From positions 845,552 to 909,551 of the forward strand of contig CAVZDU010000002.1 of NCBI GenBank assembly GCA_963774265.1: a stretch of DNA of 64,000 nt. The letters run 5' to 3'. The notes under the pieces were generated by a model, which saw only the letters and a list, made by a program, of their open reading frames with translations, was not told where the DNA came from and searched no databases. The position numbers and the translations under genes are program-made. Origin of the DNA: an uncultured Chloroflexia bacterium. Lineage in GTDB: Bacteria; Chloroflexota; Anaerolineae; CG2-30-64-16. Below, piece by piece: positions 1 to 59,368 of the stretch; position 1 is the stretch's first letter; each line of letters opens with the position of its first letter.

Positions 1-2503
1 CGGTCGCCTGGCTGTCGCTGGACGAAGGGGATAACGACCCCGCACGCTTTCTGACTTACCTCGTCGCGGCTTTGCAGACCATCTTTGCCGGTATCGGAGC
101 AGGGGTGTTGGCTGCGCTCGCAATCCCCCCAGCCGCCGCCAACCGAATCGATTCTGACAACCCTGCTCAATGAAATCACCACCATCCCGGACAATTTCAT
201 CCTCGTCCTTGACGACTACCACGCTGATTGATGCCAAACCTGGTCGACGCAGGCCCTCACCTTTCTGCTCGAGCACCTGCCGCCGCAGATGCACCTGGTC
301 ATCGCCACCCGTGAGGATCCGCATCTACCCCTGGCCCGGTTGCGCGCCCGGGGCCAATTGACCGAGCTGCGCGCCGCCGACTTGCGTTTTACCCCCGCCG
401 AAGCCGCCGAGTTTCTCAACCAGGTGATGGGGCTGAACCTCTCGGCGGAAGACATCGCCGCACTGGAAACCCGCACCGAAGGCTGGATTGCCGGCCTGCA
501 ATTGGCCGCGCTTTCAATGCAGGGACATCAAGACACCACCAGCTTCATCAAGTCTTTCACCGGCAGCCACCATTTCGTGCTGGACTATCTGGTTGAAGAA
601 GTCCTGGGACAGCAGTCCGAAAGCGTCCAGACTTTCTTGCTGCGCACGTCCATCCTCGACCGCCTGTGCGGCCCTCTGTGTGATGCCGTTCTGCTCGGAT
701 GCCGGCGGGCATCCGCGATGTCCGGGCAGGAAACCCTGGAATATCTCGAACATGCCAACCTGTTCATCGTCCCCCTGGACAACGAGCGGCGTTGGTACCG
801 CTATCACCATCTCTTTGCCGAATTGCTGCGGCAGCGACTGCACCAGAGCGCCGCCTCGCCTACCGGGAGTGACAAGGGGAGCGTGGTCGATCTACACACA
901 CGTGCCAGCCAATGGTATGAAGACAATGGCCTGGAGATTGAAGCTTTTCACCATGCGGCTGCCGCCAATGACATTGAGCGCGCCGAGCGGCTGATTGAGG
1001 GAGGGGGGATGCCCCTGCACTCACTCGGCGCGGTGACCGCCATACTCGACTGGCTGGATTCGCTGCCAAGGCCGTACTGGATGCCAGGCCCCGGTTGTGG
1101 GTGAGGTCGGCCACGTCGGCGCTGATGGCTGGACGGACAACCGGCGTCGAAGAGAAACTGCAAGCGGCCGAAAGCAGCCACTGCAAGATGCCGATCCTGA
1201 TGACAAGACCCGCGACCTGATCGGGCAAATTGCCGCCATCAGAGCCACGTTGGCGCTCCTCCGCTACCAGCCGGAGGCCACGATCATCCAGGCGCGCCGC
1301 GCCCTGGAGTACCTGCACCCCGACAACCTGCCTTTCCGCAGCACGAGCTATCTGGACGCTGGGGTTTGCTTACCAGCTCCAGGGGGACCGTGCCGCGGCC
1401 CGTCAGGTCTATACCGAAGCCATAGCTATCAGCCAGGCGTCCGGGAATATCGTACTACACTATATTGGCTACAACCAGCCTGGGCAAGATACAGGAATCT
1501 GAAAACCAGCTTTATCAGGCGGCCGAGACCTACCGGCGCTCCTGCAACTGCTTAGCGATCAGGGACCTCCGAATGCCAGCGAAGCGTATCTTGGCCTGGC
1601 CCGCATATTCTACGAATGGAACGATCTGGATGCCGCTGAGCAGCACGGACAACAGAGCCTGCAACTGGCGCGGCAGTATGACCGCGTGATTGACCGATTC
1701 ATTATCTGCGAGGTGTTCCTGGCCCGCCTGAAACTGGCCCGGGGCGATGTGGCCGGCGCGGCCGCCATGTTGGCGGAGACCGAGCAGTCCGTGCGCCAGC
1801 ATAACTTCGTGCAGCGCATGCCCGAGGTTGCTGCCGCGCAAGTGCTTGCGCTGCTTCGCCAGGGCGATCTGGCGGCAGCCGCTGCATCTGGCCCAGACGC
1901 ACGATCTCCCCATCAGCCAGGCCCGGGTACACCTGGCCCAGGGAGACCCGTCCGCAGCGCTGGCGGTGCTGGAGCCATTGCGTCAGCAGATGGAAGCCAA
2001 GGGTTGGCAGGATGAACGGCTCAAGGTGATGGTTCTGCAGGCGGTCGCGCTGCATGCGCATGGCGAAAAGGACAAGGCTGTGCAACTGCTGGGTGAGGCG
2101 CTGGCGCTGGCCGAGCCGGGCGGCTTCATCCGTCTCTTTGTGGACGAAGGCGAGCCGATGCGATGTGCTGATCTTCGATTGTCGATTGAAAAGCAGCGCG
2201 CGTGCCGGATCATGCCAGAGCGGTTACGCGGATAAACTCCTGGCTGCTTTTGCACAACCGGCGGCCATGCCACAATCGAAAATCGAACAATCCAGCAATC
2301 CACACATGCTTGAGCCACTGAGCCAACGCGAGTTGGAAGTGCTGAAGCTGATCGCCCAGGGACTCTCGAACCGTGAGATCGGCGAGCGGCTTTTCCTCGC
2401 CCTGGACACGGTCAAAGGGCACAACCGCAGAATCTTCGACAAACTGCAGGTTCAAAGCCGCACCGAAGCCATCGCCCGCGCCCGCGAGCTGGGCTTGCTG
2501 TAA
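1..2503 (+). CDS. MalT-like LAL regulator 1 (STAND ATPase-TPR-LuxR HTH), 5'-truncated by window edge, several frameshifts
   Basis: Fragments 289-1104 ([28 protein letters not shown]), 1747-2235 and 2054-2503 (LSQRELEVLKLIAQGLSNREIGERLFLALDTVKGHNRRIFDKL) are colinear with the intact paralog 3939-6680. Confidence 0.9.
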
Positions 2504-2540
2504 CAGCAAGCGCCGTATTCCTCACTATTCTCCCCTTCAA

Positions 2541-2627
2541 TCAATTCAAAACAACACCTCCCACCAACACCAAAGTGTCTATACGACTAACACCGTGTTG
2601 CCGATATACTACTTGTGCATTGAGCAA
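2541..2627 (+). promoter_or_regulatory. AACACC-type operator/promoter, copy 1
   Basis: CAACACCTCCCACCAACACCAAAGTGTCTATACGACTAACACC...TATACT; near-identical copies at 6729 and 18304; -10-like TATACT at 2605-2610. Confidence 0.75.
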
Positions 2628-2672
2628 GTGGCACAGACCGGCTGTATGACCGGCCACAACAGGTACAAGGTG

Positions 2673-2987
2673 ATGTCAAACAAACTCGACCCAACAACTG
2701 ATCCAAGTCAACCCGTGGTCTATCAGATCAGGCTCAAGGGCCATCTGGGCCGTCAGTGGACAGACTGGTTTGGCGGCCTGACCATCACGCTGGAAGAGGA
2801 CGGCGATACGCTCCTAACCGGCCCGGTGGTCGACCAGGCCGCGTTGCATGGATTGCTCAAAAAAGTGCGTGATCTGGGTATGCCATTGGTCTCGGTCACT
2901 CCTGTCGAACCCGGCCCTCCGACGACGCTCCCCCTTCGGGGACTTCGCGGGACAGGCCAGGCAGATGCGTCAGATGTCAAGTCGTAA
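2673..2987 (+). CDS. Small conserved hypothetical protein (YQIRLKGHL..WTDWF..GPVVDQAALHGLLKKVRDLG), LAL-associated
   Basis: Homologous to 59402-59653 and more distantly to 49962-49714; ATG follows an AAGGTG purine-rich stretch. Confidence 0.8.
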   Translation: MSNKLDPTTDPSQPVVYQIRLKGHLGRQWTDWFGGLTITLEEDGDTLLTGPVVDQAALHGLLKKVRDLGMPLVSVTPVEPGPPTTLPLRGLRGTGQADASDVKS

Positions 2988-3040: not shown

Positions 3041-3703
3041 ATGAAAAAAGTTAAACAATTCGGAGAAACCGTGGAAGGATATAACATCCCTGTCTTAAAC
3101 GAGCGGGAAATAAGAGCATCGGCAGGGATACTGTTTATATCTATGTTCTTTTCCTGGATGCTGGTCATATTTAAAGAGAGTTTTTTCCTGATCAAGTTTG
3201 TTAACACAATCTTCCTGACAGATTTGATCATACGGGTATTGATCAATCCCAAGTATTCACCTTCATTAATAATCGGGAGGTTGATCGTAGGCGGTCAAAC
3301 CCCCGAATATGTCGGCGCGGCTCAAAAAAAGTTTGCCTGGACGATCGGTCTGGTGTTAGCTACGATCATATTCCTGCTGTTGGTTGTAATGAATTCAACT
3401 AGCTTCATTACCGGGATTGTCTGTCAAATCTGCCTGTTATTCTTATTCTTTGAAGCTGTGTTCGGCATTTGTTTGGGATGCAAGTTCTATCCAATGTTCC
3501 ATAAAGAAAAAACTCAATACTGCCCCGGTGAAATTTGTGATGTCAAGGTAAAACAGGAGATCCAGAAAACGTCGTTACTGCAAAAAGGCGTTGTGATTGG
3601 GTCTTTCGCTTATGTGATAGCAGCAGCGATCTTGCTTAACAATAATTTTAGTGCAAAACCGACTGACTTATGGGTCATCGTGAAATCTGTTCTATCGCTC
3701 TAA
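3041..3703 (+). CDS. DUF4395-like membrane protein
   Basis: LNEREIRASAG N-terminus, several TM segments, FEAVFGICLGC and CPGEIC Cys motifs; AGGAG RBS; lower GC than flanks. Confidence 0.75.
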   Translation: MKKVKQFGETVEGYNIPVLNEREIRASAGILFISMFFSWMLVIFKESFFLIKFVNTIFLTDLIIRVLINPKYSPSLIIGRLIVGGQTPEYVGAAQKKFAWTIGLVLATIIFLLLVVMNSTSFITGIVCQICLLFLFFEAVFGICLGCKFYPMFHKEKTQYCPGEICDVKVKQEIQKTSLLQKGVVIGSFAYVIAAAILLNNNFSAKPTDLWVIVKSVLSL

Positions 3704-3938: not shown

Positions 3939-6680
3939 ATGTCCACGCCCATCCTGGCCACCAAACTTTATGTTCCCCTTCTTCGGCCTAAAGTCGTCCT
4001 CCGCCCCCGCCTGATCGAGCGGCTGAACGAGGGTCTGCGCCAAAGCCACGGCTTTGGACGCAAACTGACCCTCATCTCTGCCTCCGCCGGCTTCGGTAAA
4101 ACCACGCTGGTCAGCGAATGGGTCGCCGGCTGCGAGCGCGGCGAACCGAAGGTCCGCGTTGCCTGGCTGTCGCTGGATGAAGGGGACAACGATCCCGCAC
4201 GCTTTCTGACTTACCTCGTCGCGGCGGTGCAGACAGTCGCGCCCCGAGGGTCCGCTGTCGACGAGATCGGAGCAGGGGTGCTGGCTGCGCTGCAATCCCC
4301 CCAGCCGCCACCAACCGAATCGCTTCTGACGACCCTGCTCAATGAAATTGCGGCCATCCCGGAGAATTTCATCCTCGTCCTGGACGACTACCACGTCATC
4401 GATGCCCGACCGGTTGCCGCGTCGACCTCCGTCGACGCGGCCCTCACCTTTCTGGTGGAACATTTACCACCGCAGATGCACCTGGTCATTGCCACGCGTG
4501 AGGATCCCCATCTCCCCCTGGCCCGGTACCGCGCCCGGGGCCAATTGACCGAGCTGCGCGCCGCCGATTTGCGTTTCACCCCCGCCGAAGCCGCCGAATT
4601 TCTCAACCAGGCCATGGGTCTGCACTTGTCGGTCGAAAACATCGCGGCCCTGGAAACCCGCACCGAAGGCTGGATTGCCGGCCTGCAATTGGCCGCACTT
4701 TCAATGCGGGGACATCAAGACACCGCCGGCTTCATCAAGTCTTTCACCGGCAGCCACCATTTCGTGCTGGACTACCTGGTTGAAGAAGTCCTGGGGCAGC
4801 AATCCGAAAGCGTCCAGGCTTTCTTGCTGCGCACATCCATCCTGGACCGCATGTGCGGCCCGCTGTGTGACGCGGTTTCGCAGGGCGACCAGGGTCCCAC
4901 GCCTGCTGCTTCCGGTCAGGAAACCCTGGAATACCTCGAACACGCCAACCTGTTTGTCGTCCCCCTGGACAACGAGCGGCGCTGGTACCGCTATCACCAT
5001 CTCTTTGCAGAATTGCTGCGGCAGCGGCTGCAGCAGAGCCTCGCTTCATCAGGGGATGAAGGGCGGAGCGGGGCCGAGTTACACAGCTTGGCCAGCCAAT
5101 GGTACGAAAACCATGGCCTGGTGATCGAAGCCTTCCGTCATGCGGCTGCCGCCCATGACATTGAACGCGCCGAGCGGCTGATTGGGGGAGGAGGGATACC
5201 CCTGCATTCACTTTTCGCGGCGACCGCCATGCTCGACTGGCTGGATTCGCTGCCGAAGACTGTATTGGATGCCAGACCCTGGTTGTGGGTAAGTTCTGCC
5301 ACATCGGCGCTACTGGCTGGACAGACAACTGGTGTCGAAGAAAAACTACAAGCAGCTGAAAAAGCCATACAAAATGCCGATCTTGATGATAAGACCCGCG
5401 ACCTGATTGGACAAATTGCCGCTGTGAGAGCCATATTGGCGCACCTCCAATACCAGCCAGAAGCCACGATCACCCAGGCGCGCCGCGCCCTGGAGTACCT
5501 GCACCCCGATAACCCGCCTTTCCGTAGTAGAGCTTTCCGGGCGCTGGGGTTTGCTTACCAGCTCCAGGGGGACCGTGCCGCGGCCCGTCAGGCCTTTACC
5601 GAAGCCATATCTATCAGACAAGCGTCCGGGGATATCTACCTAACTGTATCAGCTGCAACCGGCTTGGGCAACGTACAGGAATCTGAAAACCAGCTTTATC
5701 AGGCGGTCGAAACCTACCAACGCTCCCTGCAACTGCTTAGTGATCAGTCATCTTCGAACGCTGATCAAGAGTTTATTGGCTTGGCTCGCATATTCTATGA
5801 ATGGAACGATCTGGATGCCGCTGAGCAGTACGGGCAGCAGAGCCTTCAACTAGCGCGGCAGTATGATCGCGCGGTTGATAGATTCGTTATCTGCGAGGTG
5901 TTTCTTGCCCGCTTGAAACTGGCCCGGGGTGATGTAGCCAGCGCAGCTGCAATGTTGGCTGAAACCAGCCGTTCCGTGCAACAGCATAACTACGAGCATC
6001 GTATACCCGATGTAGCTGCTCAACAAGTGATAGTGTTGCTTCATCAGGGTGATCTGGCGGCAGCTGCACAATTGGCTCAAGCACACGAACTGCCCCTGAG
6101 CCAGGCCAGGGTACACCTGGCCCAGGGAGACCCATCCGCAGCGCTGGCGGTGTTGGGGCCGTATCGCCAGCAGGCGGAAGCCAGGAATTGGCAGGATGAA
6201 CGGCTCAAGGTGATGGTCCTCCAGGCGGTCGCGCTCCAGGCGCATGGCGAAGTGGACAGAGCCGTGCAGCTTCTGGGCGAGGCGCTGGCACTGGCCGAGC
6301 CGGGCGGCTTCATCCGGACCTTTGTGGACGAAGGCGAGCCGGTGGCCCGGCTATTGTCCGGGGCGGCTGCCCGTGGGATGATGCCGGACTATACCGCTAA
6401 GCTGCTGGCTGCATTTCAGGATGTGACGCATGACGAAGGACAGACGCCACAACTTGCGCCTTCCGTCCTTCGTCCTTCGTCATTGGGCGAGCCATTGAGC
6501 CAACGCGAGTTGGAAATCCTGAAGCTGATCATCCAGGGACTCTCGAACCGTGAGATCGGCGAGCGGCTCTTCCTCGCCCTGGACACGGTCAAAGGGCACA
6601 ACCGCAGGATCTTCGACAAACTCCAGGTGCAAAGCCGCACCGAAGCCATCGCCCGCGCCCGCGAGCTGGGCTTGTTGTAA
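3939..6680 (+). CDS. MalT-like LAL regulator 2 (intact, 913 aa)
   Basis: ILATKLYVP start, Walker A ASAGFGKTT, Walker B LVLDDYH, TPR-like region, C-terminal LuxR HTH. Confidence 0.95.
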   Translation: MSTPILATKLYVPLLRPKVVLRPRLIERLNEGLRQSHGFGRKLTLISASAGFGKTTLVSEWVAGCERGEPKVRVAWLSLDEGDNDPARFLTYLVAAVQTVAPRGSAVDEIGAGVLAALQSPQPPPTESLLTTLLNEIAAIPENFILVLDDYHVIDARPVAASTSVDAALTFLVEHLPPQMHLVIATREDPHLPLARYRARGQLTELRAADLRFTPAEAAEFLNQAMGLHLSVENIAALETRTEGWIAGLQLAALSMRGHQDTAGFIKSFTGSHHFVLDYLVEEVLGQQSESVQAFLLRTSILDRMCGPLCDAVSQGDQGPTPAASGQETLEYLEHANLFVVPLDNERRWYRYHHLFAELLRQRLQQSLASSGDEGRSGAELHSLASQWYENHGLVIEAFRHAAAAHDIERAERLIGGGGIPLHSLFAATAMLDWLDSLPKTVLDARPWLWVSSATSALLAGQTTGVEEKLQAAEKAIQNADLDDKTRDLIGQIAAVRAILAHLQYQPEATITQARRALEYLHPDNPPFRSRAFRALGFAYQLQGDRAAARQAFTEAISIRQASGDIYLTVSAATGLGNVQESENQLYQAVETYQRSLQLLSDQSSSNADQEFIGLARIFYEWNDLDAAEQYGQQSLQLARQYDRAVDRFVICEVFLARLKLARGDVASAAAMLAETSRSVQQHNYEHRIPDVAAQQVIVLLHQGDLAAAAQLAQAHELPLSQARVHLAQGDPSAALAVLGPYRQQAEARNWQDERLKVMVLQAVALQAHGEVDRAVQLLGEALALAEPGGFIRTFVDEGEPVARLLSGAAARGMMPDYTAKLLAAFQDVTHDEGQTPQLAPSVLRPSSLGEPLSQRELEILKLIIQGLSNREIGERLFLALDTVKGHNRRIFDKLQVQSRTEAIARARELGLL

Positions 6681-6728
6681 CAGCAGGGTCCGTATTCCTC
6701 AACACTCTCCTCCTTCAGTGATCCAAAG

Positions 6729-6790
6729 CAACACCTCCAACCAACACCAAAGTGTCTATACACTAACACCGCATTGCGGATATTCTACTT
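6729..6790 (+). promoter_or_regulatory. AACACC-type operator/promoter, copy 2
   Basis: AACACC at 6730, 6743 and 6765; ACAC-CAAA-GTGT palindrome; -10-like TATTCT at 6781-6786. Confidence 0.75.
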
Positions 6791-7842: not shown

Positions 7843-7903
7843 ACCCGCCAAAGCGCCGCATCCGGTAAGTTGCGCGGCCATGCTGGCTTGGAAAGCGCCG
7901 ACT

Positions 7904-18292: not shown

Positions 18293-18378
18293 CCAATTCA
18301 AGACAACACCTCCGACCAACACCAAAGTGTCTATACACTAACACCGTATTGTCGATATTCTACTTGTGACTTGAGCAA
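18293..18378 (+). promoter_or_regulatory. AACACC-type operator/promoter, copy 3 (no adjacent LAL gene)
   Basis: About 85 bp near-identical to 2541-2627; TATTCT at 18356-18361. Confidence 0.75.
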
Positions 18379-23992: not shown

Positions 23993-24155
23993 GGTTCACT
24001 CCTGAATGCGTATTGGCTGGATAAAGAGAATGCTAGAGTACGTACGAACCGACAACAGTGATAGCGCTTCCTGTCAAGCACAATCTCTGCACAATATTTA
24101 TGCAACCATTGGCCAAACGGTAACACCGTGCAGGCCCTATTCTACATTGGGGCGC

Positions 24156-24190
24156 TTCCTGAATTGTGGCGCATGTTCTATAATCGTCCT
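24156..24190 (+). promoter_or_regulatory. Putative leaderless promoter of LAL3
   Basis: TATAAT at 24179-24184, 6 bp before ATG 24191. Confidence 0.6.
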
Positions 24191-26935
24191 ATGTCCGCAC
24201 CCATCTTAGCCACCAAACTGTATGTTCCCCCACCCCGGCCTAACGTTGTCCCTCGCCCCCGCCTGATCGGACGGCTGTACGAGGGTCTGCGCCAAAACCA
24301 GGGCTTTAGCCGCAAGCTGACCCTCATCTCGGCCCCCGCCGGCTTCGGTAAAACCACGCTGGTCAGCGAATGGGTCGCGGGTTGGCCGCGCATCGAACCA
24401 AAGGTCCGCGTTGCCTGGCTGTCGCTGGACGAAGGGGACAACGACACGGCACGCTTTCTGGCCTACCTCGTCGCGGCGCTGCAAACGATCGCGCCCCGAG
24501 GGTCCGCTGGCGGCGAGATCGGAGCCGGGGTGCTGGCTAGCCTGCAATCCGCTCAGCCGCCGCCAACCGAATTGCTTCTGACAACCCTGCTCAATGAAAT
24601 CGCCGCGGTCCCGGACCATTTCATCCTCGTCCTGGATGACTACCACGTGGTTGATTCTGAACCGATTGACGCGGCCCTCATCTTTCTGGTGGAACATTTG
24701 CCGCCGCAGATGCACCTGGCCATCGCCACGCGTGAGGATCCACAGCTACCCCTGGCCCGGTACCGCGCCCGGGGCCAGTTGACCGAGCTGCGCGCCGCCG
24801 ACTTGCGTTTCACCCCCGCCGAAGCCGCCGAATTTCTCAACCAGGTGATGGGGTTAAGCCTCTCGCCGGAAAACATCGCCGCCCTGGAAACCCGCACCGA
24901 AGGCTGGATTGCCGGCCTGCAATTAGCCGCGATTTCAATGCGGGGACATGGGGATGCCACCGGCTTCATCCAATCCTTCACCGGGGGCCACCATTTCGTG
25001 CTGGACTACCTGGTTGAAGAAGTGCTGCACCAGCAGCCTCAGAGCATCCAGGCATTCCTGCTGCGCACATCCATCCTCGACCGCCTGTGCGGCCCCCTGT
25101 GTGACGCCGTTATGAACGGGGAGGCCGGCCAGGGCACCCTGGAATATCTCGAACGCGCCAACCTCTTCATCGTCCCGCTGGACAACGAGCGGCGCTGGTA
25201 CCGCTATCACCATCTCTTTGCCGATCTGTTGCGGGGGCGATTGCAGCAGGGCGACGACGCGGCCGAATTGCATCTTCGCGCGAGCCGGTGGTATGAAAAC
25301 AACGGTTATGAGGCCGAAGCCTTCCATCACGCGCTTGCCGCCGGGGATTACGGCCGGGCAGCGGGATTGGCCGAGCTAGCATGGGTGGGCATGGACAGGG
25401 TTTTTCAATCCGCGGCCTGGCTTGGCTGGATCAAAAAACTGCCGGACGAGGAGGTCCGAGCCCGGCCCGTGCTCTGCACCCAGATTGCCTATGCCTTGAC
25501 GGACGCCGGCGAGCTGGAGGCCAGCGAATCGCGCTTGCGGGACGCCGAACGGTGGCTGGATGTCACGGAAGCCTCATCGGGTGCGATGGTTGTCGTGGAT
25601 AAGGAGCTGTTTCGGGCTTTGCCCGCGAGGATCGCAATTATCCGCGCGTCGAATGCCCAGGCCCAGGGCGATTTCGCCGGCACGGTGAAATACGCTGAGC
25701 TGGCGCTCGCTCTCAGTTCTGAAGACGATTTCAATCACGAAGCGGCAACCGTCATTTTGGGCATGGCCAACTGGGCGCGCGGCGAGCTGGAGCCGGCCAA
25801 GAGGGTCATGAAGGATTGGATCAACGGGATGCAAAAGGCCGGCAATACCGCTTTTGCCCTTGTCAGCATGAGCTACCTGGCCGATATGATCGTGTCCCAG
25901 GGGCGTCTCCGGGAGGCAGTAACCGCATACCGGCAAACATTGTCGCTCGCGTCAGCGTGCGACAAATCCGTGCTGCCAATGACGGCGAATGCCCACCTGG
26001 GTTTAGCCTTGATCTTTCACGAGCAAGACAATCAGGAAGCCGCCGCACAAGACCTGCTCCAAAGCAAGGAGCTGGGTGAAGGGACCTCGTTGATTGACTG
26101 GCCCTGTCGCTGGCATCTTGCCCAGGCCCGCCTCAAAGAGGCCGGGGGCGATCTGGAAACCGCTCTTGACCTGCTGGATGAGGCCAGGCGCCTGTATGTC
26201 AGGGAGCCCGTGCCGGATATCCGTCCCGTAGAGGCCTTGAAAGCCAGGGTGTACGTCAAGCAAGGTCGACTAACCAGGGCCTTTGATTGGGTTCGTGAGC
26301 GAGGTCTGACCGTTGATGATGATCTCAGCTACCTGCGCGAGTTCGAGCACATCACCCTGGCCAGGGTGCTCCTCGCCGACTACATGAGCCACCGCGCCGA
26401 ACGCTCCGTGCTTCAGGCTATCGCCTTCCTGGATCGCCTCTTGCAGGCGGCGGAAGCAGGGGGTCGGATAGGGAGCGCGATCGAAATCCTGGCGCTGCAG
26501 GCGCTCGCTCACCGGGCGCAGGGCAACATCCCCCGGGCTCTCGCCTCCCTGGAACGCGCCCTGGCTTTCGCCGAGCCGGAAGGCTATATCCGGGTCTTTG
26601 TCGACGAAGGCCCGGCCATGGCGGACCTTCTGGCAAGGATGAAGGCGGAAGACGAAGAACGGAAGGCGTATGTCCACAGATTGCTCGCTGGTTGCGGAGC
26701 AAAAGAAGCTCGTCCTTCATCCGTCACCCGTCAGCCTACGGTTGAGCCGCTGAGCGAGCGCGAGCTTGAAGTGCTCAGGTTGCTCCGTACGGACTTGAGT
26801 GGCCCCGAAATTGCCCGCGAGCTCATGGTGTCCCTGAACACCCTGCGAACCCACACCAAAAACATCTTCGGAAAGCTTGGGGTGAACAGCCGCCGCGCGG
26901 CCATCCACCGCGCGCAAGAACTCAATTTACTGTAA
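24191..26935 (+). CDS. MalT-like LAL regulator 3 (intact)
   Basis: [71 protein letters not shown]. Confidence 0.95.
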   Translation: MSAPILATKLYVPPPRPNVVPRPRLIGRLYEGLRQNQGFSRKLTLISAPAGFGKTTLVSEWVAGWPRIEPKVRVAWLSLDEGDNDTARFLAYLVAALQTIAPRGSAGGEIGAGVLASLQSAQPPPTELLLTTLLNEIAAVPDHFILVLDDYHVVDSEPIDAALIFLVEHLPPQMHLAIATREDPQLPLARYRARGQLTELRAADLRFTPAEAAEFLNQVMGLSLSPENIAALETRTEGWIAGLQLAAISMRGHGDATGFIQSFTGGHHFVLDYLVEEVLHQQPQSIQAFLLRTSILDRLCGPLCDAVMNGEAGQGTLEYLERANLFIVPLDNERRWYRYHHLFADLLRGRLQQGDDAAELHLRASRWYENNGYEAEAFHHALAAGDYGRAAGLAELAWVGMDRVFQSAAWLGWIKKLPDEEVRARPVLCTQIAYALTDAGELEASESRLRDAERWLDVTEASSGAMVVVDKELFRALPARIAIIRASNAQAQGDFAGTVKYAELALALSSEDDFNHEAATVILGMANWARGELEPAKRVMKDWINGMQKAGNTAFALVSMSYLADMIVSQGRLREAVTAYRQTLSLASACDKSVLPMTANAHLGLALIFHEQDNQEAAAQDLLQSKELGEGTSLIDWPCRWHLAQARLKEAGGDLETALDLLDEARRLYVREPVPDIRPVEALKARVYVKQGRLTRAFDWVRERGLTVDDDLSYLREFEHITLARVLLADYMSHRAERSVLQAIAFLDRLLQAAEAGGRIGSAIEILALQALAHRAQGNIPRALASLERALAFAEPEGYIRVFVDEGPAMADLLARMKAEDEERKAYVHRLLAGCGAKEARPSSVTRQPTVEPLSERELEVLRLLRTDLSGPEIARELMVSLNTLRTHTKNIFGKLGVNSRRAAIHRAQELNLL

Positions 26936-26982: not shown

Positions 26983-27046
26983 ATCACCACATCGATCACC
27001 ACACCTGGTGATGACGCGTCACCATATAATCGGGTATCTTTGGGTC
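26983..27046 (+). promoter_or_regulatory. TCACCA-type operator/promoter
   Basis: ATCACCA (26983), ATCACCA (26995), inverted TGGTGAT (27006), GTCACCA (27018), then TATCTTTGGGTC. Confidence 0.7.
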
Positions 27047-27079
27047 ATAGAAAAGAGCAAACGGAACCAGGGAGGAAGA

Positions 27080-37810: not shown

Positions 37811-37859
37811 GGCACGGTCCCTTTTGTTTCGGTGCCCTTGTCAATGTTGACAAGACCAT

Positions 37860-37891
37860 CATCCGGTACTTGATGTCATAGTTGATGATGA
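37860..37891 (-). repeat. Short relic of the MTase 3' end (IINYDIKYRM)
   Basis: CATCCGGTACTTGATGTCATAGTTGATGATGA matches 37982-38013 with 2 mismatches. Confidence 0.8.
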
Positions 37892-37945
37892 GCAGCGGCT
37901 ACCACGCGACATGTTAGAGATGGCGGACATGGGTTGTTCACCTGC

Positions 37946-41264: not shown

Positions 41265-41282
41265 GGTTTTCCTTCCGACGTG

Positions 41283-41497
41283 CTAGTGACCCTTTGCCAA
41301 CATACCAAAGTGCTTAAGCGCGGCTGTGATGTCAGCTTGCTTGCCGGGGGGGCATGGATACGCTCTAGTTCCCCCTCGATTCGGAGCCGGCTTGATGGGG
41401 AGCCGTTTAACTCTTTGACATGGGCGATCCAGCAGGTCTTGGGGACATAGCCGTATTGCTCACTGACGTACTCTCGGATTTGACGGTAGGTAGCCAT
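41283..41497 (-). CDS. Small protein ATYRQIREYV..YG..KTCWIAHVK...AALKHFGML (one frameshift)
   Basis: GGAGG RBS; resembles the small C-terminal domain of some RumA/TrmA-type RNA methyltransferases (recalled, not searched). Confidence 0.55.
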
Positions 41498-41505
41498 ATT
41501 CCTCC

Positions 41506-49713: not shown

Positions 49714-49962
49714 TCACGTGGATTGGATGATCTGAAATTGCTGGATCGTTATGCCCAGCCCGTGCAGCCTGCGCACCAGCCCGACGATGCCCGCTTGATC
49801 GGTGTTCACATCGAGCACGGTGACTTCGTCCAACTGTCTGGCCTCATCGACGATGATCTCCGCCGAACCGCCGAAGCCTTGCAGCCACTCCACGTCGACT
49901 CGGCCACGGATCTCAATCCGGTAATGTGTCGTTGGATCGAAGATGGGTTTTGCTTCATTCAT
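49714..49962 (-). CDS. Small LAL-associated protein (divergent homolog)
   Basis: YRIEIRGRV...W...F...T.L....DQAGIVGLVRRLHGLG pattern; GGAGG RBS. Confidence 0.75.
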   Translation of the reverse strand: MNEAKPIFDPTTHYRIEIRGRVDVEWLQGFGGSAEIIVDEARQLDEVTVLDVNTDQAGIVGLVRRLHGLGITIQQFQIIQST

Positions 49963-50011: not shown

Positions 50012-50080
50012 AGTCTATCGGAGCAGACAAAAAAAGGAACCACATAACCATGTGGTTCCTCGAGAGATAAATATGTGGTT
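50012..50080 (-). promoter_or_regulatory. AACCACAT-type operator/promoter downstream of LAL4
   Basis: AACCACAT direct copy, perfect GGAACCACAT-N4-ATGTGGTTCC palindrome (50036-50059), -10-like TAGACT at 50017-50012. Confidence 0.65.
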
Positions 50081-50093: not shown

Positions 50094-52829
50094 TCAGATA
50101 AAATTCATCTCGCGGGCTGTCTCGATCGCCTGCGCCCGCTTGTTGACCTGCAGCTTACTGTAGATGTTCTTGACGTGAAACTGGACCGTGTTCAGGCTGA
50201 GGAAGAGCTGCTGGCCGATCGCTTCATACGTCAGCCCCCTGGCCAGGCAACGCAGTACTTCGAGCTCGCGCTCGCTCAACAGCGTCTCGTGCCTGCCTCC
50301 GGTTTCGGGTCGCACCGGTTCGCAGGTCATCGCTTCCGTGAGACGGTCGGCATATGCCATAAGGGTTTCGTGTGCCAGCCGGGGCCTGAGCTCGGCCAGC
50401 AGGGCTTTTAGGAGGTCGCATTCATCCACAAAGATGCGGAAAAGCCCCGTGGGTGCGGCTGTGGTCAACGCCGCCTCGAGCATTTTCAGCGCTTCATGCT
50501 TCTTCCCCGCAGCCTGGTAGAGCAAGGCCCTGGCGATGGCGATTTCCACGACCGGGCCGGTGAAATCATGGGCCGCGGCGAAATCGTGCTGGCGCTCCAG
50601 GTAAGCATGAACGTCCTGCAGCGGGGTTGCGCCGGGCTGCCCTTTTGCCAGGCGCGCCAGCACATGGGCTGCGCGGAGATAGCTCTCGAAGTGGGCCATG
50701 CTCATGGGGACCACGCTGTGGATCACGGCCAGCTTGCCGTACTCGATCCCTGACTGGGCCAACCAGGCCCGGGCATCCTTCGACACGTTCGGATCGGTGG
50801 GCCAATGACGCATCAACAGGTGGTGGCGCAAAGCCTGGGCATAGAGCGCGCCTTCGGGCCAGGCCTCTTCGAGGGTCTTCACCGCTTCCAGCATGGCCGG
50901 CCGGTCCCCCTGGATGGCGCGCAAGCGGGCCAGCGCGGTATAGCCGGTATAGTGCGCCTCATAGTCCCCGGTCCAGCGGATCAAATCGAGCCCTTCCAGC
51001 AAGACCGGTTCGGCTTCTGCCAGGCAGTTGTATTCCAGGAGGATGCTGCCCTTCAGGATGCTAAGCCCCCCGATCGGCGGGAAATGCTGACCGGCCCGGA
51101 TTTTGTGGAAGCGTTCGATGTAGGCGTCACATAGGTGCAGGGCTTCGTTCAAGCGTCCCGCCAGCAGGGCGATCAGGACCAGGTTGATCGGCCCGTAGAT
51201 GGCGGCGTAGAGATTGCCTCCGGCCAAACCGTCCTCCAGGGTTTGTCTGTAGGCGAGCTCGGCAGCCTGAGTATCCGCCAGCACCAGGTAACCGTAGCCG
51301 ATGTTCAGGCCGTTGACGCTGCGAATCGCCCTTTCCCCCTCCGGCAAGAGCCGCAGGGCTTCCCGGGAGAGAGCGATCAGCGGTTCCGGTCTTTCGCCGA
51401 TCAGCGCGGGCGATCGCAGCAAATAAGCCCGAATGGTGGCCGCGTGTCCGGCGACCAGGGCGCGCAGCGCTTCCCCCGCGTTCACCATCTCCAGGGCACG
51501 GTCCGCGGCCTGTAGCGCCCGGTCCACCTCGTCCCTGCGCGTGCCGCGTTTCATCAGGACCAACGCCCAGGCCTTGTAGATGCACAACATGGGGGCAGCC
51601 TGCTCGACCGCCTCAGGCAGCCTGTCGAACCAGCTCAGGACCACGGTGACCCGACCTTGATACAACTCCAGGAGGGCGTTTCGCTCGATCAGGTCCGCGG
51701 CTCGGGTCAGATCGCTGTCCTGCAGCGCGTGATCGATTGCGGTGTGGATTTGTCCATGTTCCTCGTACCAGCGGCTGGCGCGGCGGTGAAGCACGGGGAT
51801 GAGCCCGGGCTGGGAGCGGGACAACTGGTTGCGCAGCAAGTCGGAGAAAAGATGGTGATAGCGGTACCAATGGCGTTCTTCGTCCAGGGGGATGAGGAAG
51901 AGGTTCGCGGCGTCCAGCTTGGCCAACAGCGTGCCGCTATCAGTCCGCCCGGTGAGCGCGTCGCACAGCGGCCCGCTGAGGCGATTGAGAACCGCGGTTT
52001 GCAGCAGGAACGCGCGGGTATCTTCGGGCTGCTGCCGGATCACCTCGTCGGTCAGGTAGTCCAATATGTGGCGGTTGCTGCCGGAGAAATCGGCGATGAA
52101 AGACGGCAGGTCGGCCCGTTTTTGCATCGACAGCGCGGCAAGTTGCAGGCCCACCGCCCAGCCTTCGGTGCGATCCTCCAAGGCAGCGACATCCTGCTCG
52201 GAAAGCGTCAATCCCATGACGCTCCCCAGGAACGCTTTGGTCTCTCCCCGGGTAAAGCGCAGATCCCCGGCGCGGATTTCGGTGAGCCGGTCCTGGGCTC
52301 TTAGCCGCGACAAGGGCAGGTCGGGGTCTTCGCGTGTCGTGAGCACCAGGTGGAGCTGCGGAGGCAGGTGATCGAGCAAGAATCCCATCACCTGCAGAAC
52401 AGGGGGGTTATGGAGCAGGTGAAAATCGTCCAGCACCAGGATGAGCGGATCTGTTCGGGCGGCAATCTCGTTGAGCAAGCCCGCCAGCACCTTCTCAATG
52501 GCAGGAAGCTGTGGCGCCTGCAGGACGCCGAGCACCGATCCCCCGATTTCCTCGTCTGCCCCCTGGAATGCGGCTGCCAGGTGAGCCAGAAAGCGCGTCA
52601 GCTCGTTGTCGGCCTCGTCCAGGGACAGCCATGCCGCCGGAAGGCCGTTCTGGTTGAGCCAGTCGACCACCAGGGTGGTCTTGCCGAATCCCGCCGGCGC
52701 CGAGACCAGGGTCAGCTTGCGTTTTGCGGTCGGTCCCTCATTCAATAATTCGATCAGGCGGGGGCGTGGCACCAGGTTGGGACGGAGCGGAGGGATGAAT
52801 AGTTTGGAGGTTAACAGTTTTATGGCCAT
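50094..52829 (-). CDS. MalT-like LAL regulator 4 (intact, ~911 aa)
   Basis: [28 protein letters not shown] ...FLSLNTVQFHVKNIYSKL. Confidence 0.95.
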   Translation of the reverse strand: MAIKLLTSKLFIPPLRPNLVPRPRLIELLNEGPTAKRKLTLVSAPAGFGKTTLVVDWLNQNGLPAAWLSLDEADNELTRFLAHLAAAFQGADEEIGGSVLGVLQAPQLPAIEKVLAGLLNEIAARTDPLILVLDDFHLLHNPPVLQVMGFLLDHLPPQLHLVLTTREDPDLPLSRLRAQDRLTEIRAGDLRFTRGETKAFLGSVMGLTLSEQDVAALEDRTEGWAVGLQLAALSMQKRADLPSFIADFSGSNRHILDYLTDEVIRQQPEDTRAFLLQTAVLNRLSGPLCDALTGRTDSGTLLAKLDAANLFLIPLDEERHWYRYHHLFSDLLRNQLSRSQPGLIPVLHRRASRWYEEHGQIHTAIDHALQDSDLTRAADLIERNALLELYQGRVTVVLSWFDRLPEAVEQAAPMLCIYKAWALVLMKRGTRRDEVDRALQAADRALEMVNAGEALRALVAGHAATIRAYLLRSPALIGERPEPLIALSREALRLLPEGERAIRSVNGLNIGYGYLVLADTQAAELAYRQTLEDGLAGGNLYAAIYGPINLVLIALLAGRLNEALHLCDAYIERFHKIRAGQHFPPIGGLSILKGSILLEYNCLAEAEPVLLEGLDLIRWTGDYEAHYTGYTALARLRAIQGDRPAMLEAVKTLEEAWPEGALYAQALRHHLLMRHWPTDPNVSKDARAWLAQSGIEYGKLAVIHSVVPMSMAHFESYLRAAHVLARLAKGQPGATPLQDVHAYLERQHDFAAAHDFTGPVVEIAIARALLYQAAGKKHEALKMLEAALTTAAPTGLFRIFVDECDLLKALLAELRPRLAHETLMAYADRLTEAMTCEPVRPETGGRHETLLSERELEVLRCLARGLTYEAIGQQLFLSLNTVQFHVKNIYSKLQVNKRAQAIETAREMNFI

Positions 52830-53133
52830 AGGGAGCCCCCAACCAAATTGGTTCGCATCGCCGGCTGGACAGGAATTGGCCTCACTATACGTTAAAGCAC
52901 ACATTACTTCAAAAGTGTAGGTGAGATTACTGTTCAGCAATGGCCATGTAGTGGCAAAGGAGGCTTGCGTATCAATACGACAGTGCTGTCCCGTGTCCCC
53001 TGCAAACAGCATTGCCCCTTACGACGAAGACGTGTGCGTTGTGTTACATTAGCGCGCGTTGCATGTGCCGCGCTTCCTGCGGATCGATACGGTGATTGAG
53101 AAAACAAGGACAGGCAAGGTGCGGAGGATTGAC

Positions 53134-56348: not shown

Positions 56349-56358
56349 GCGGGATGCC

Positions 56359-56393
56359 TTTCGAAGTACGGACGGGCGGTGTATAATCGGTCC
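56359..56393 (+). promoter_or_regulatory. Putative leaderless promoter of LAL5
   Basis: TATAAT at 56382-56387, 6 bp before ATG 56394. Confidence 0.6.
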
Positions 56394-59213
56394 ATGTCTG
56401 CGCCGATTTTAGCCACCAAGCTGTATATCCCCCCGCATCGATCGAACGTTGTCCTCCGCCCCCGCCTGATCGGGCGGCTCAACGAGGGCCTCCGCCAAAG
56501 CCATGGCTTTGGACGCAAGCTGACCCTCATCTCTGCCCCCGCCGGCTTCGGCAAAACCACGCTGGTCAGCAGTTGGTTGGCTGGCTTGCCGACGAGGGCA
56601 GCGAGTCAGGAAGAAAACGCGAATCCAAAATCCAAAATCCAAAATCCAGTGGCCTGGCTTTCGCTGGACAAAGACGATAATGATCTGACGCGTTTTCTGG
56701 CGTATTTCATCGCGGCCTTGCAGACCATCGCGCCCACGGTTGGAGAAGCGACGTTGGGCGCGCTCGCAGTCGTCGCAGCCGCCGCCGACCGAATTGCTTC
56801 TGACGACCCTGCTCAATGAAATGGCCGCCATCCCGGACCATTTCGTCCTCGTCCTTGACGATTACCACGTGATTGAACCTGAACCGGTTGACGCGGTCGA
56901 CCGTAACTGTCGACGACGCGCTCGCCTTTCTGCTCGACCACCTGCCGCCCCAGATGCACCTGGTCATCACCACCCGTGAAGACCCCCAGCTACCCCTGGC
57001 CCGGTACCGCGCCCGGGGCCAACTGACCGAGCTGCGCGCCGCCGACTTGCGTTTCACCCCCGCCGAAGCCGCCGAATTTCTCAACCAGGTGATGGGCCTC
57101 GAATCTCTCCGCGGAAGACATCGCGGCCCTGGAAGCCCGCACCGAAGGCTGGATTGCCGGCCTGCAATTGGCCGCCCTGGCATGCAGCCTTGCCATGCAG
57201 GGGCGATCAGACACCGCCCGTTTTATCCAGGCTTTCACCGGCAGCCACCGTTTTGTGCTGGACTACCTGGCCGAAGAGGTGCTTCATCGCCAGCCCGAAC
57301 GGGTGCGCTAGCTTCTTGCTGCAAACCGCTATTCTCGACCGGTTAAGCGGCCCTCTGTGCGATGCCGTCACCGGGCGAGACGATGGCAGAGAGATGCTGG
57401 ATGCCCTGGAGCGCGGCAACCTGTTCGTCGTGCCGCTCGATGACAAGCGCCAGTGGTATCGTTATCACCACCTCTTCGCCGATGTTTTGCAGTCGCGCTT
57501 GATGGAGGAGCAGCCTGATCAGGTACCTGGCCTGCACCGGCGGGCAAGCGAGTGGTACGAGCAGAACGGTCTGCCATCCGATGCGATCCGCCATGCGCTT
57601 GGCCGCCGAGGATTTCGAGCGCGCGGCGGGCCTGATCGAACTGGCCTGGTCAGCCATGGACGTCAACATGCAATCCGCCACGTGGCTCGGTTGGGCAAGG
57701 GCATTGCCGGACGAGCTGATCCGTGCCCGGCCTGTGCTCAGCGTTGGCTATGCCTGGGCGCTACTGGATGGCGGTGAGATGGAGACCTGCGAGGCTCGGT
57801 TGCGGGACGCCGAACGGTGGCTGGACACGCCAGCGGACGCGGAAGAGGCCGGAACGCCATCGAACGAGATGGTCGTCGTGGACGAAGAACAATTTCGGTC
57901 GCTGCCCGCGACGATCGCCACCGCCCGAGCCTACCGCGCCCTGGCCCTCGGCGATGTACCCGGCGCCGTGAAGAACGCGCGGCAGGCGCTCCAACTCACA
58001 CCGGAGGAAGACTATATCAGGCACGTGCAGGCAACCTCGCTCCTGGGGATTGCCCAGTATGCGAGCGGAGACCTGGAGGCAGCCGACCAGTCCCTGGCCG
58101 ATTTCCTGGCGAATCTGTGGAAAGCGGACGACATCCTGACCGCAATCGGCATCACATTTGTCCTGGCCGACATCAGGACGGCACGAGGCCGTCTCCACGA
58201 GGCAGTCCGCACCTACCAGCAGGCATTGCAGCTCGCGGCCAGTCAGGGCGAGCCACTGCCCGTGGGGACGGCGGACCTGTACCGGGGAATCAGTGAGCTT
58301 TACTGCGAACGGGGCGACCTGGAAGCCGCCGCACAACACTTGTTAACAGGCAAGAAGCTGAGCGAGCAAGCAGCACTCACCGGTTGGCAGCATCGCCTGT
58401 GCGTCGCCGAGGCTCGCATAAAGGAGGCCCAGGGAGACCTGGATGGCGCTCTCGAGCTGCTGGACGAGGCGGAGCGCCTGTATGTCAGGAGTCCACTGCC
58501 CGATGTGCGTCCCATCGCGGCACTGAGGGCACGGATTTGGGTTGCGCAGGGCAGGCTGACCGAAGCATTGGCCTGGACACGTCAGCGGGGCCTATCCATT
58601 GACGACGACCTCAGCTACTTGCGTGAGTTCGAGCACCTCGTGTTAGCCAGGGTACTTATCGCCCGGTATCAGCGCGAGCGGGTAAATGGAGCCATTCACG
58701 AGGCCCTGGGCCTCCTGGAGCGCCTCTTGCGTGCGGCGGAAGAAGGTGGGCGGACGGGAAGCGTGATCGAGATCCTGGTGCTTCAAGCGCTTGCTCACGA
58801 GGCAGAAGGCAACCTGGCTCCTGCCCTCGCGGCGTTGGAGCGGGCGCTGACCCTGGCGGAGCCGGAGGGCTATGTCCGCATCTTCGTGAACGAGGGCGCG
58901 GCCCATGGCGCGGCTGCTGCAAGAGGCCGCGGTGCGCGGTATCGCCGCGAACTATGTGAGTCAATTACGGGCAGCTTACGGGCAGGTTGCAGGCAGAATG
59001 CCTGTCTCTCAGCCCTTGATCGAGCCATTGAGCGAACGTGAGATGGAAGTGCTCAGGCTGCTCAAAACCGAATTGAGCGGCCCGGAAATTGCCCGCGAGC
59101 TCATCGTGTCACTGAGCACCCTGCGCACCCACACCCAAAACATTTACACCAAGCTTGGCATGAACAATCGCCGGGCGGCCGTCCGCCGCGCTGAGGAACT
59201 CGATTTGCTGTAA
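56394..59213 (+). CDS. MalT-like LAL regulator 5 (several frameshifts)
   Basis: [25 protein letters not shown] region similar to LAL3, HTH ...[18 protein letters not shown]. Confidence 0.9.
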
Positions 59214-59304
59214 CGAACGGGCAATCACCGACCCGCGCCCTGGCAGGTGTGTCGAGCCATCTGCCGGGGCGCTTTTGTTTCCCCTGCAGCCTCCCGATCT
59301 ATCG

Positions 59305-59368
59305 ATCATCACACCGTTCATCACATGTGATGATGATGCCTCATCACATCATCCTGTATCTTTGGGTC
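59305..59368 (+). promoter_or_regulatory. TCATCA-type operator/promoter
   Basis: ATCATCA (59305), TTCATCA (59317), inverted TGATGAT (59328), CTCATCA (59340), TATCTTTGGGTC; aligns without gaps to 26983-27046. Confidence 0.7.

Follow-up and report, generated by a model that had tools for sequence, protein, structure and literature searches.

Each of the five MalT-like regulator genes (LAL1 to LAL5) in the window, the whole 64,000-nucleotide stretch of DNA that was analysed, is followed on its 3' side, before the next gene, by an array of mostly six-base boxes (Table 1). In about 100 related genomes box sequence and recognition helix vary in step, which suggests that the regulator's HTH probably binds its own downstream array, a variant of the known MalT box, likely switching on the neighbouring gene.

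MalT-family regulators and the arrays behind them

All five genes described by the sequence-only reading are present with their arrays, and their recognition-helix peptides lie at the positions it gave. Two of them, LAL1 and LAL5, are multiply frameshifted as assembled, with at least 5 frame changes against the LAL2 reference and at least 6 against the LAL3 reference, respectively; the operators of both broken genes are intact. Domain profiles detected TPR_MalT and GerE in LAL2, LAL3 and LAL4, the MalT-type TPR sensor (PF17874, cut-off 45) scoring 258, 214 and 101 bits, while AAA_16 matches in the LAL proteins were weak. All five genes, the broken ones included, yielded the C-terminal GerE/LuxR-type HTH (PF00196, cut-off 23.5), with scores of 53 to 69 bits. 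The MalT profile NF003420 aligned over its full length with LAL2 (E 3e-130), LAL3 (2e-118) and LAL4 (3e-125), and their 436, 397 and 419 bits did not reach the 537 bits that this equivalog sets for MalT orthology. For the N-terminal nucleotide-binding oligomerisation module, residues 29-409 of LAL3 matched the solved MalT chain 8bob_C (E 2.1e-54). On these profile scores LAL2, LAL3 and LAL4 are members of the MalT family and not MalT orthologs, and each intact gene is by its domain matches a MalT-family STAND regulator with an ATPase, a MalT-type TPR sensor and a LuxR/GerE HTH.

Table 1. Regulator genes, predicted operators and neighbouring genes in the window
Feature	Position	Strand	Description
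LAL1	1..2503	+	MalT-like; begins about 250 nt before the window; broken; helix DTVKGHNRR
Operator/promoter 1	2553..2610	+	AACACC at 2553, 2566, 2589; palindrome centre 2572.5; TAnnnT hexamer TATACT at 2605
Palindrome of operator/promoter 1	2567-2578	+	ACACCAAAGTGT
sp1	2673..2987	+	small ferredoxin-like protein; first gene of module 1
DUF4395 membrane protein	3041-3703		next after sp1
LAL2	3939..6680	+	intact, 913 aa; AAA_16/NACHT-like, TPR_MalT, GerE; helix DTVKGHNRR
Operator/promoter 2	6730..6786	+	AACACC at 6730, 6743, 6765; palindrome 6744-6755, centre 6749.5; TAnnnT hexamer TATTCT at 6781
ADH_zinc gene	6859-7842		after operator 2
Hydrolase gene	7760-9031		after operator 2
Orphan AACACC operator/promoter	18305..18361	+	palindrome centre 18324.5; TAnnnT at 18356; precedes PEMT/ICMT-like gene 18475-19044
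LAL3	24128..26935	+	intact, 935 aa; helix NTLRTHTKN at 26837-26860
Operator/promoter 3	26984..27040	+	TCACCA at 26984, 26996, 27019; inverted TGGTGA at 27006; palindrome centre 27003.5; TGAC at 27012-27015; TAnnnT hexamer TATCTT at 27035
DUF6326 gene	27080-27499		after operator 3
sp4	49714..49962	-	small ferredoxin-like protein, divergent; beta-lactamase-family ORFs next
LAL4 element	50012..50080	-	AACCACA at 50080, 50057; inverted TGTGGTT at 50044; palindrome centre 50047.5; TAnnnT hexamer TAGACT at 50017
LAL4	50094..53012	-	intact, 972 aa; helix NTVQFHVKN
LAL5	56352..59213	+	broken; helix STLRTHTQN at 59115-59138
Operator/promoter 5	59306..59362	+	TCATCA at 59306, 59318, 59341; inverted TGATGA at 59328; palindrome centre 59325.5; TAnnnT hexamer TATCTT at 59357
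sp5	59402..59653	+	small ferredoxin-like protein; then ORF 59646-60458 with weak DUF4386 match

Every coordinate, spacing and box of the sequence-only reading was found again in the sequence. When re-measured, the palindrome centre lies 31.5 nt before the start of the TAnnnT hexamer (32.5 in copy 1, 30.5 at LAL4), and the distance between the outermost direct boxes is 35 nt, or 36 nt in copy 1. Between stop codon and first box there are 49, 49, 48, 92 and 13 nt at LAL1, LAL2, LAL3, LAL5 and LAL4, respectively. The start codons follow 39 to 72 nt past the -10 hexamer in the window.

In order to compare the arrays with chance, the regions downstream of 181 LAL genes from 90 related genomes were scored for box 1, box 2, inverted box 3 and box 4, with 18 possible matches and a threshold of at least 15. 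This score was reached in 62/181 regions, as against 3/181 for the reverse complement, 0/181 for shuffled sequence and 2/181 for the coding DNA just upstream; at 16 or more there were 49 LAL regions and none in any of the three controls. The 119/181 regions scoring below 15 include the 26 class-A rows, and for helices of the form [NSTH]T.R[TSA]H the threshold was reached in 48/72. Some close homologs, such as L003 and L061 (Cohnella), are without any array. The canonical layout is TCNNCA-6-TCNNCA-4-TGNNGA-7-TCNNCA (direct, direct, inverted, direct). When 13 class-A sequences of 11 genomes are aligned, the columns without variation fall within boxes, palindrome, TATAC and -10, and 26 aligned class-B arrays show the same pattern of invariance; across genomes box positions are conserved while spacers drift. 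Altogether, these counts support the box arrays as real and far above chance.

Searched on both strands, the 5.5-Mb genome has perfect arrays, other than GC-rich repeats, only after LAL3, LAL5 and LAL6, and every class-B palindrome occurs there essentially only once, 3' of its own LAL. LAL0, LAL1 and LAL2 have one helix and one operator type in common, and the same operator type occurs at the orphan promoter, which has no LAL gene upstream. Besides, among 68 metagenome operators 51 have a LAL HTH within 600 nt upstream, while 17 are without one in at least 590 nt of upstream DNA. The description of these modules as a self-contained and orthogonal set is not supported by these observations.

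Co-variation of recognition helix and boxes

The sequence-only reading expected box class to follow helix class across genomes, and the two are indeed associated, in counts per position as well as in a blind test. With N at helix position 1, box position 3 is A in 42/42 cases, and with S it is a base other than A in 27/32; with K at helix position 8, box position 4 is C in 57/59 cases, and with R or Q it is T in 15/16. In class A a D helix accompanies AACACC in 14/17 cases and an S helix AATACT or CATAC in 5/5. All four boxes change in concert between paralog classes that differ in their recognition helix, and two genomes from different families, G000 and G079, both keep the trio TCACCA/N..K, TCATCA/S..Q and TCCCCA/S..KS. 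In the blind test, the rules of the genome set were applied to metagenome loci chosen by DNA pattern alone and predicted 116/160 boxes, as compared with 58 +/- 8 for shuffled helix labels (0/10000 reached 116) and 87 when the commonest box was always guessed. Exceptions to the rules are NTMRTHTKN with TCATCA (L070), STVRTHTKN with TCATCA (L116) and T at position 7 with TCACCC (L090), and mixed arrays exist, for example three TCACCA with one TCATCA; S..R helices have alternating TCGTCA/TCATCA and fall outside the rules. Of the proposed readable helix-to-DNA code the co-variation and its predictive value stand; a simple per-position code breaks down for helices that combine S at position 1 with R at position 8.

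On the tree, only two to three well-supported independent helix-box switches are resolvable: the contrasts on well-supported branches number 2 for helix position 1 and 3 for helix position 8, none of them in the opposite direction, and a sign test on these contrasts is not significant. With so few, the association could largely go back to a handful of old events that many rows have inherited, regulator and neighbouring DNA having been duplicated together without the helix differences setting specificity. The four AACACC elements of the genome, about 90% identical over about 85 bp with the spacers included, are in agreement with this. Such co-inheritance is nevertheless very unlikely to be the whole explanation, since between classes the differences cluster at the same one or two positions of each of the four boxes, with CATCAA, CATG and TGAC unchanged as spacers, a pattern that neutral drift does not predict, and since across genomes it is the spacers that vary and the boxes that stay. 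Furthermore, the genome-set rules predict independently drawn metagenome boxes, and the E. coli MalT helix TTIKTHIRN fits two of them: its position 8 is R where the fourth base of the box is T, and its position 7 is hydrophobic where the sixth base is C.

Taken jointly, these observations raise the possibility, which we put forward tentatively and would not call probable, of a natural and very large switch library in which three helix residues set three box bases: helix position 1 (N or H versus S) would set box position 3 (A versus C or G), position 7 (T versus hydrophobic) box position 6 (A versus C), and position 8 (K versus R or Q) box position 4 (C versus T). The sequence of any member would then reveal its target box, also for E. 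coli MalT, several paralogs could work together in one cell, and the ~85-aa protein described below would be their universal partner, as a feedback or ligand-presenting subunit.

Probable activation and possible repression or termination at the arrays

In the 105 canonical arrays, TAnnnT lies exactly 10 nt past box 4 in 98 and a.GAC element (TGACA, AGACA or TGACG) directly follows the inverted box in 54. The earlier statement that these promoters have no consensus -35 applies loosely; about half of the family, operator 3 included, has a -35-like TGAC 3' of the palindrome. In the mechanism that we favour, the HTH of each intact LAL would bind the array starting 13 to 92 nt past its own stop codon, where ligand- and ATP-driven oligomers of the regulator may occupy the boxes. 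The palindrome would be centred near -43.5, with its 3' end at about -36 from the predicted start, and the regulator would serve as activator for the downstream gene's promoter, in the manner of MalT at MalT boxes overlapping the -35. Box variants have diverged among paralogs in step with 2 to 3 recognition-helix residues, and the paralogs may be insulated from one another.

The same arrays could also be bound by the LAL for repression or dual action, with occupancy of box 3, beside the -35, and of box 4 in the spacer occluding RNA polymerase until the ligand changes the oligomer. The consensus promoter of the family is fairly strong, with a near-consensus -35 and -10 (aTGACa, 18 nt, TATAgT), and box 4 falls within the spacer between them, an arrangement that would suit a repressor as well; the LAL-type SCO6993 is reported as a palindrome-binding repressor (PMC9628970). 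Yet the.GAC is kept in little more than half of the canonical arrays, the promoters of the window are weak (operator 3 has 8/12 consensus positions), and in experiments MalT from both E. coli and Actinoplanes activates from sites with this same position relative to the -35 (PMC7567727). On balance we regard repression as unlikely and activation as the preferred reading.

At LAL4, the palindrome and boxes lie where the operator had been placed, and the palindrome is at the same time a terminator hairpin: about 33 nt past the stop codon, a 12-bp stem with 5 GC pairs and a 4-nt loop is followed by T7, and its predicted RNA fold of -24.8 kcal/mol (z -4.1) was equalled by 0/200 shuffles. By these features it is a canonical intrinsic (rho-independent) terminator. 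In its relatives L066 and L067, whose helix has an aromatic residue at position 5, a T run likewise comes after the palindrome. That the palindromes are in general terminators of the LAL genes, the extra boxes being chance or relics, is extremely improbable: in the remaining four elements of the window the fold is not better than that of shuffles (z -0.7 to -1.1) and a T run is absent, the palindrome has direct half-site copies beside it even in the cases of LAL4 and L066, and a terminator would have no use for the fourth box or the fixed TAnnnT. In LAL4 and relatives, one hairpin may serve both as terminator and as operator.

Downstream genes and comparison with known systems

About half of the modules begin with an unnamed ferredoxin-like protein of ~85 aa, often followed by small membrane proteins (DUF4386, DUF4395, DUF6326) or enzymes. 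In a comparison with stand-alone RAM/ACT-type ferredoxin-fold domains, its AF2 model (pLDDT 84) has the order E-H-E-E-H-E; the best Foldseek match has an E of 0.018, and the best VIA match, TTHA0845 (Lrp RAM domains), a Z of 7.7, which is in the tool's 'common' range. No Pfam or NCBIfam match was found for this protein. The family comprises 15,664 clusters at 50% identity (E <= 1e-3) and occurs in 59/301 sampled genomes of the phylum, so that the usual predicted first target belongs to a very large unnamed protein family.

In Chloroflexota, Actinobacteria and soil metagenomes, LAL/MalT-like proteins belong to the commonest large regulators, yet very few have a known binding site. Should the helix-box rules hold, sequence alone would suffice to predict direct target and operator for thousands of members not yet characterised, and the modules would offer naturally insulated regulator-promoter pairs for studying how one-base operator changes are discriminated.

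In class II activation of the LuxR/TraR type, a dimer of GerE-type HTHs binds a palindrome centred at about -42 to -44, beside or overlapping the -35. Here, by contrast, the sensor is a STAND ATPase with TPR and not an acyl-homoserine-lactone domain, and extra direct boxes flank the palindrome. The pathway-specific Streptomyces regulators MilO and PimR, of the LuxR-family and SARP-LAL kinds, resemble the present case in binding three direct repeats at a single neighbouring promoter, but MilO does not belong to the LALs and has 11-bp repeats situated 142 bp upstream of the TSS, while PimR binds via a SARP domain (PMC11784345).

The MalT of E. coli and Klebsiella shares the domain order and the full-length protein alignment; its arrays include direct repeats with a proximal site at the -35 region, and its published box core in E. 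coli is GGA(T/G)GA, or TC(A/C)TCC on the other strand (PMC7567727), one or two bases off the boxes described here. It differs in that the LALs score below the MalT equivalog cut-off, in their fixed four boxes with an internal 4-bp-spaced palindrome, in a target that would be the gene directly downstream instead of the mal regulon, and in the many paralogs per genome, with differing boxes and the small protein as usual first target. In Actinoplanes sp. SE50/110, MalT was found to be an activator by deletion and overexpression and activates 40/51 genes, which are not maltose genes, through TCATCC-5nt-GGATGA overlapping the -35 (PMC7567727). This is likewise a palindromic hexamer pair, and between its 3' end and the mapped TSS there are 34.4 +/- 1 nt, compared with about 36 nt predicted here; in contrast, a single regulator acts on 17 promoters of a 51-gene region, the two hexamers are 5 nt apart, and the available text of that report does not describe flanking direct boxes or a paralog series. 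The sequence-only reading knew of no description of the arrangement; with boxes that are variants on the MalT box core and the Actinoplanes palindrome already published (PMC7567727), it is a diversified form of a known one.

MalT-like regulators of the window and the arrays behind them

The window holds five MalT/LAL-type genes, LAL1 to LAL5 (STAND ATPase, TPR, LuxR/GerE HTH). The intact LAL2, LAL3 and LAL4 cover the MalT profile NF003420 end to end (E 3e-130, 2e-118 and 3e-125, respectively), all scoring below its equivalog cut-off, and 8bob_C, a solved MalT chain, matches residues 29-409 of LAL3 at 2e-54. Some but not all of the junctions where the frame changes in LAL1 and LAL5 coincide with homopolymers, and these genes are either pseudogenes or the product of assembly errors. 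Beyond the window, the source genome G000 carries five further LAL genes, namely LAL0, frameshifted too and some 5 kb ahead of the window, and LAL6 to LAL9. With regard to autoregulation, the 300 nt upstream of the intact LAL2, LAL3 and LAL4 contain no cognate box in either direct or inverted orientation.

Positions of the features discussed (window coordinates)
Feature	Position	Strand	Description
LAL1	end at 2503		in pieces; at least 5 frame changes relative to LAL2 (tblastn)
sp1	2673-2987		~85-aa protein
Cargo gene	3041-3703		DUF4395
LAL2	3939-6680		intact; MalT-type TPR region and GerE/LuxR HTH
High-AT-skew stretch	12001-14000		AT skew 0.33, much higher than elsewhere in the window
IS-type transposase	15457-16482		DDE_3 and HTH domains
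Orphan AACACC element	18305-18361		no preceding LAL
LAL3	24128-26935		intact; MalT-type TPR region and GerE/LuxR HTH
op3	26984-27040		operator after LAL3
Shared stretch, op3	27035-27060		downstream of the -10
Cargo gene	27080-27499		DUF6326
Defence-type cluster	35987-44434		partly overlapping or short ORFs
GmrSD_N	35987-37810
Eco57I-type methylase piece	37946-39040
SNF2/DEAD helicase pieces	42240-44302
sp4	49714-49962	minus	~85-aa protein
Operator palindrome, then T run	50012-50080		terminator-like
LAL4	50094-53012	minus	intact; MalT-type TPR region and GerE/LuxR HTH
LAL5	end at 59213		in pieces; at least 6 frame changes relative to LAL3 (tblastn)
op5	59306-59362		operator after LAL5
Shared stretch, op5	59357-59385		downstream of the -10
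sp5	59402-59653		~85-aa protein
Cargo gene	59646-60458		weak DUF4386

The sequence-only reading had placed a box array with a -10 element after each of the five genes. Palindrome centres and helix peptides lie where it put them, all coordinates being confirmed in the sequence, and the same holds for the distance from palindrome centre to TAnnnT (31.5 nt; 32.5 in copy 1, 30.5 at LAL4) and for the span from first to last direct box (35 nt; 36 in copy 1). The AACACC operator reported after LAL1 and LAL2 is present, but as one operator type common to LAL0, LAL1, LAL2 and an orphan site: it is a single ~85-bp unit, ~90% identical in four copies, three following these genes and the fourth without a preceding LAL. 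A single operator type serves three regulators and an orphan promoter, which limits the proposal of a set of orthogonal switches. At LAL4 the spacing stood, but the palindrome is a canonical intrinsic terminator, with a 12-bp stem and T7 directly after the gene; the other four elements, of class A (AACACC type) and class B (TCNNCA type), fold no better than shuffles, and no known RNA family was found in the window at Rfam gathering scores.

An operator palindrome with a T run behind it, resembling a terminator, also occurs at L066 (Marispirochaeta) and L067, two of the collected loci, making three distant organisms with the window. The LALs concerned have an aromatic side chain at helix position 5 (NTV[RLQ][YF]H), and in them the hairpin may have two functions. 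Downstream of the -10, op3 and op5 have in common GTATCTTTGGGTC, then a purine-rich stretch, and relatives carry the same feature (TATCCTTTGGTCGAAGAAAAGAATGAA); this shared stretch is possibly a conserved 5' leader.

Elsewhere in the window, the defence-type cluster could represent a restriction island that has decayed or was mis-assembled. The stretch of high AT skew falls within the minus-strand gene of a 1084-aa PTPS_related membrane protein, and no tandem repeat was found there.

Distribution of the arrays and co-variation with the recognition helix

LAL C-termini and the downstream DNA were gathered from three sources: relatives of G000, where 32 of the 41 genomes carry a homolog (61 rows reaching the C-terminus used, 60 fetched); a class sample, where 86 of the 401 genomes gave a match (30 loci direct plus 80 of 114 further rows); and named genome records, scanned with the C-terminal 400 aa of LAL3 (8 loci). 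By the named records, this LAL group belongs to Chloroflexota/Anaerolineae, and Cohnella, Marispirochaeta and Clostridia contain outliers. Filtering left 181 unique LAL ends, drawn from 90 genomes. A detector built on the canonical layout (box1, box2, inverted box3, box4; 18 possible matches) scored ≥15/18 in 62 of the 181 downstream regions, as compared with 3/181 for reverse complements, 0/181 for shuffled sequences and 2/181 for coding DNA; at ≥16/18 the figures were 49 versus 0 in each control. The array is present in 48 of 72 LALs with an [NSTH]T.R[TSA]H helix, and is absent from the 220 nt downstream of the Cohnella locus L061 (helix NTLRTHTKN). Perfect arrays in G000, other than GC-rich repeats, stand only after LAL3, LAL5 and LAL6, and across the 5.5-Mb genome the class-B palindromes of these arrays occur once or almost so. 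Two more exact occurrences of TCATCAn4TGATGA lie in G000 at C3:308496 and C3:316017, outside any LAL module.

Of 105 canonical arrays, 98 carry TAnnnT exactly 10 nt 3' of box 4, and 54 have.GAC directly behind the inverted box. Contrary to the earlier description of these promoters as having no consensus -35, a -35-like element is present in the consensus of 26 canonical arrays (anchored alignment), aaaTCNNCAcatcaaTCNNCAcatgTGNNGAtgaca.cTCNNCAcatt.atttgTATAgT. Class A goes undetected by the four-box detector because its palindrome is imperfect; in an alignment of 13 sequences from 11 genomes, the invariant columns are those of its boxes, palindrome, TATAC and -10, and its spacers vary.

The sequence-only reading had also claimed that the box tracks the recognition helix, and this was borne out by paired classes across genomes and by pooled counts at helix positions 1, 7 and 8 (helix numbered as in LAL3, N1 T2 L3 R4 T5 H6 T7 K8 N9; box T1 C2 N3 N4 C5 A6). 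TCACCA is paired with helix NT.R.HTKN, TCCCCA with ST.R.HTKS, TCATCA with [ST]T.RTHTQ., TCCCCC with STVRSH.K. and TCACCC with NT.[KR].H[LI][KR]. The DNA pattern TCNNCACANNNNTCNNCANNNNTGNNGANGNNNNNTCNNCA, run against metagenomes, yielded at least 121 stretches, 80 of which became loci, and the pooled helix-box set amounted to 81 unique rows. In these rows, N at helix position 1 goes with A at box position 3 (42/42), as does H (5/5), while S goes with non-A (27/32); K at helix position 8 goes with C at box position 4 (57/59), and R or Q with T (15/16). Threonine at helix position 7 is matched by A at box position 6 in 25/25, and where the latter is C or T, position 7 is hydrophobic in 11/15. Within class A, a D helix occurs with AACACC in 14/17 and an S helix with AATACT or CATAC in 5/5.

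The rules from the genome set were then applied blind to the metagenome loci (160 boxes, 40 loci). The central dinucleotide was correct in 116 of the 160 boxes, against baselines of 58 ± 8 with shuffled helix labels (116 in 0 of 10000 shuffles) and 87 when the commonest box was always guessed, and at least three of four boxes were correct in 28 of the 40 loci. The code is not simply additive, since the rules fail on S..R helices, for which they predict TCCTCA and the actual arrays alternate TCGTCA and TCATCA; further exceptions are the loci L070, L116 and L090 and mixed arrays. The helix-DNA rules are correlative but were predictive in an independent sample.

As to INDEPENDENCE, a tree of ~140 C-terminal residues with the helix masked gave only 2 independent contrasts for helix position 1 and 3 for helix position 8 on well-supported branches, none opposite in direction, so that a sign test falls short of significance. 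From class to class, all four boxes differ at the same one or two positions with the spacers unchanged, and G000 and G079, genomes of different families, retain the same trio of helix-box pairs. At the level of sequence, the concerted change within operators and the shared trio are a stronger argument than the tree contrasts.

Orphan operators and cargo genes

Among the matches listed, 51 of the 80 metagenome loci have a LAL HTH ≤600 nt upstream of the operator, and for a further 17 operators none occurs in upstream DNA of at least 590 nt; the genes upstream of these 17 that Pfam can name are unrelated. These 17 of 68 metagenome operators, and the AACACC type at an orphan promoter, limit the proposal that the modules are self-contained. 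A canonical four-box operator followed by the small protein was seen at the metagenome loci L180, L184, L192, L199, L201, L208, L215, L220, L225, L234, L255 and others. Genes upstream of these operators encode an MFS transporter, a solute-binding protein, a hydrolase and DUF4386, and because they are unrelated, the regulator is not always the upstream neighbour. In the window, the LAL2 module and the orphan AACACC operator have the IS-type transposase between them.

Of 176 LALs for which ≥500 nt of downstream sequence was available, 92 have a ~85-aa protein encoded by the first gene behind them (consensus YEIRxxGHL...W..WF.GLTIT...G.T.LTGPV.DQAAL.GLL.K.RDLGLPL). G000 has 8 copies of this family: sp1, sp4 and sp5 in the window, and those at C2:842373, C2:728870, C6:88456, C1:1102796 and C1:1118857. 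No Pfam or NCBIfam model matched the protein; it is modelled as a ferredoxin-like beta-alpha-beta-beta-alpha-beta fold (pLDDT 84), and no specific structural relative was found (best Foldseek E-value 0.018, best VIA Z 7.7). The family comprises 15,664 clusters at 50% identity in a library of 1.84 billion proteins and was found in 59 of the 301 genomes sampled from the phylum. Behind the ~85-aa gene, or in its place, the cargo consists of small membrane proteins (DUF4386, DUF4395, DUF6326) or enzymes. The DUF cargo of the window represents three families, and locus L301 carries DUF4386 cargo at 4191-4904 and 6098-6739.

Mode of action and relation to known MalT systems

Sequence comparison argues that the arrays are real and widespread, a diversified form of the MalT-box system in which the operators are paralog-specific. 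No paper on helix-operator co-variation in the MalT/LAL family, or on a cassette of LAL, operator and small protein, was found in a search made mostly without subscription journals. We infer the mechanism from homology and geometry: a LAL regulator would bind the predicted MalT-box operator near -35, and the next gene would thereby be activated. Repression, or a dual role, is possible as well, given that box 4 lies inside the promoter spacer and that SCO6993, one LAL-type protein, is a reported repressor (PMC9628970).

Activation is nonetheless the likely role, on comparison with two MalT systems described in PMC7567727. The E. coli MalT box has the core GGA(T/G)GA, or TC(A/C)TCC on the other strand, from which the boxes of the present arrays depart by one or two bases. 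The E. coli MalT helix, aligned to LAL3, reads TTIKTHIRN, and its R8 goes with box T4 and its I7 with box C6, as the rules predict. Actinoplanes MalT activates through TCATCC-5nt-GGATGA overlapping the -35, the 3' end of this motif lying 34.4 ± 1 nt from the mapped TSS; here, a transcription start 7 nt beyond the -10 would put the end of the palindrome at about -36. On these grounds we take the arrays to be MalT-box operators and the LAL proteins to be likely activators.
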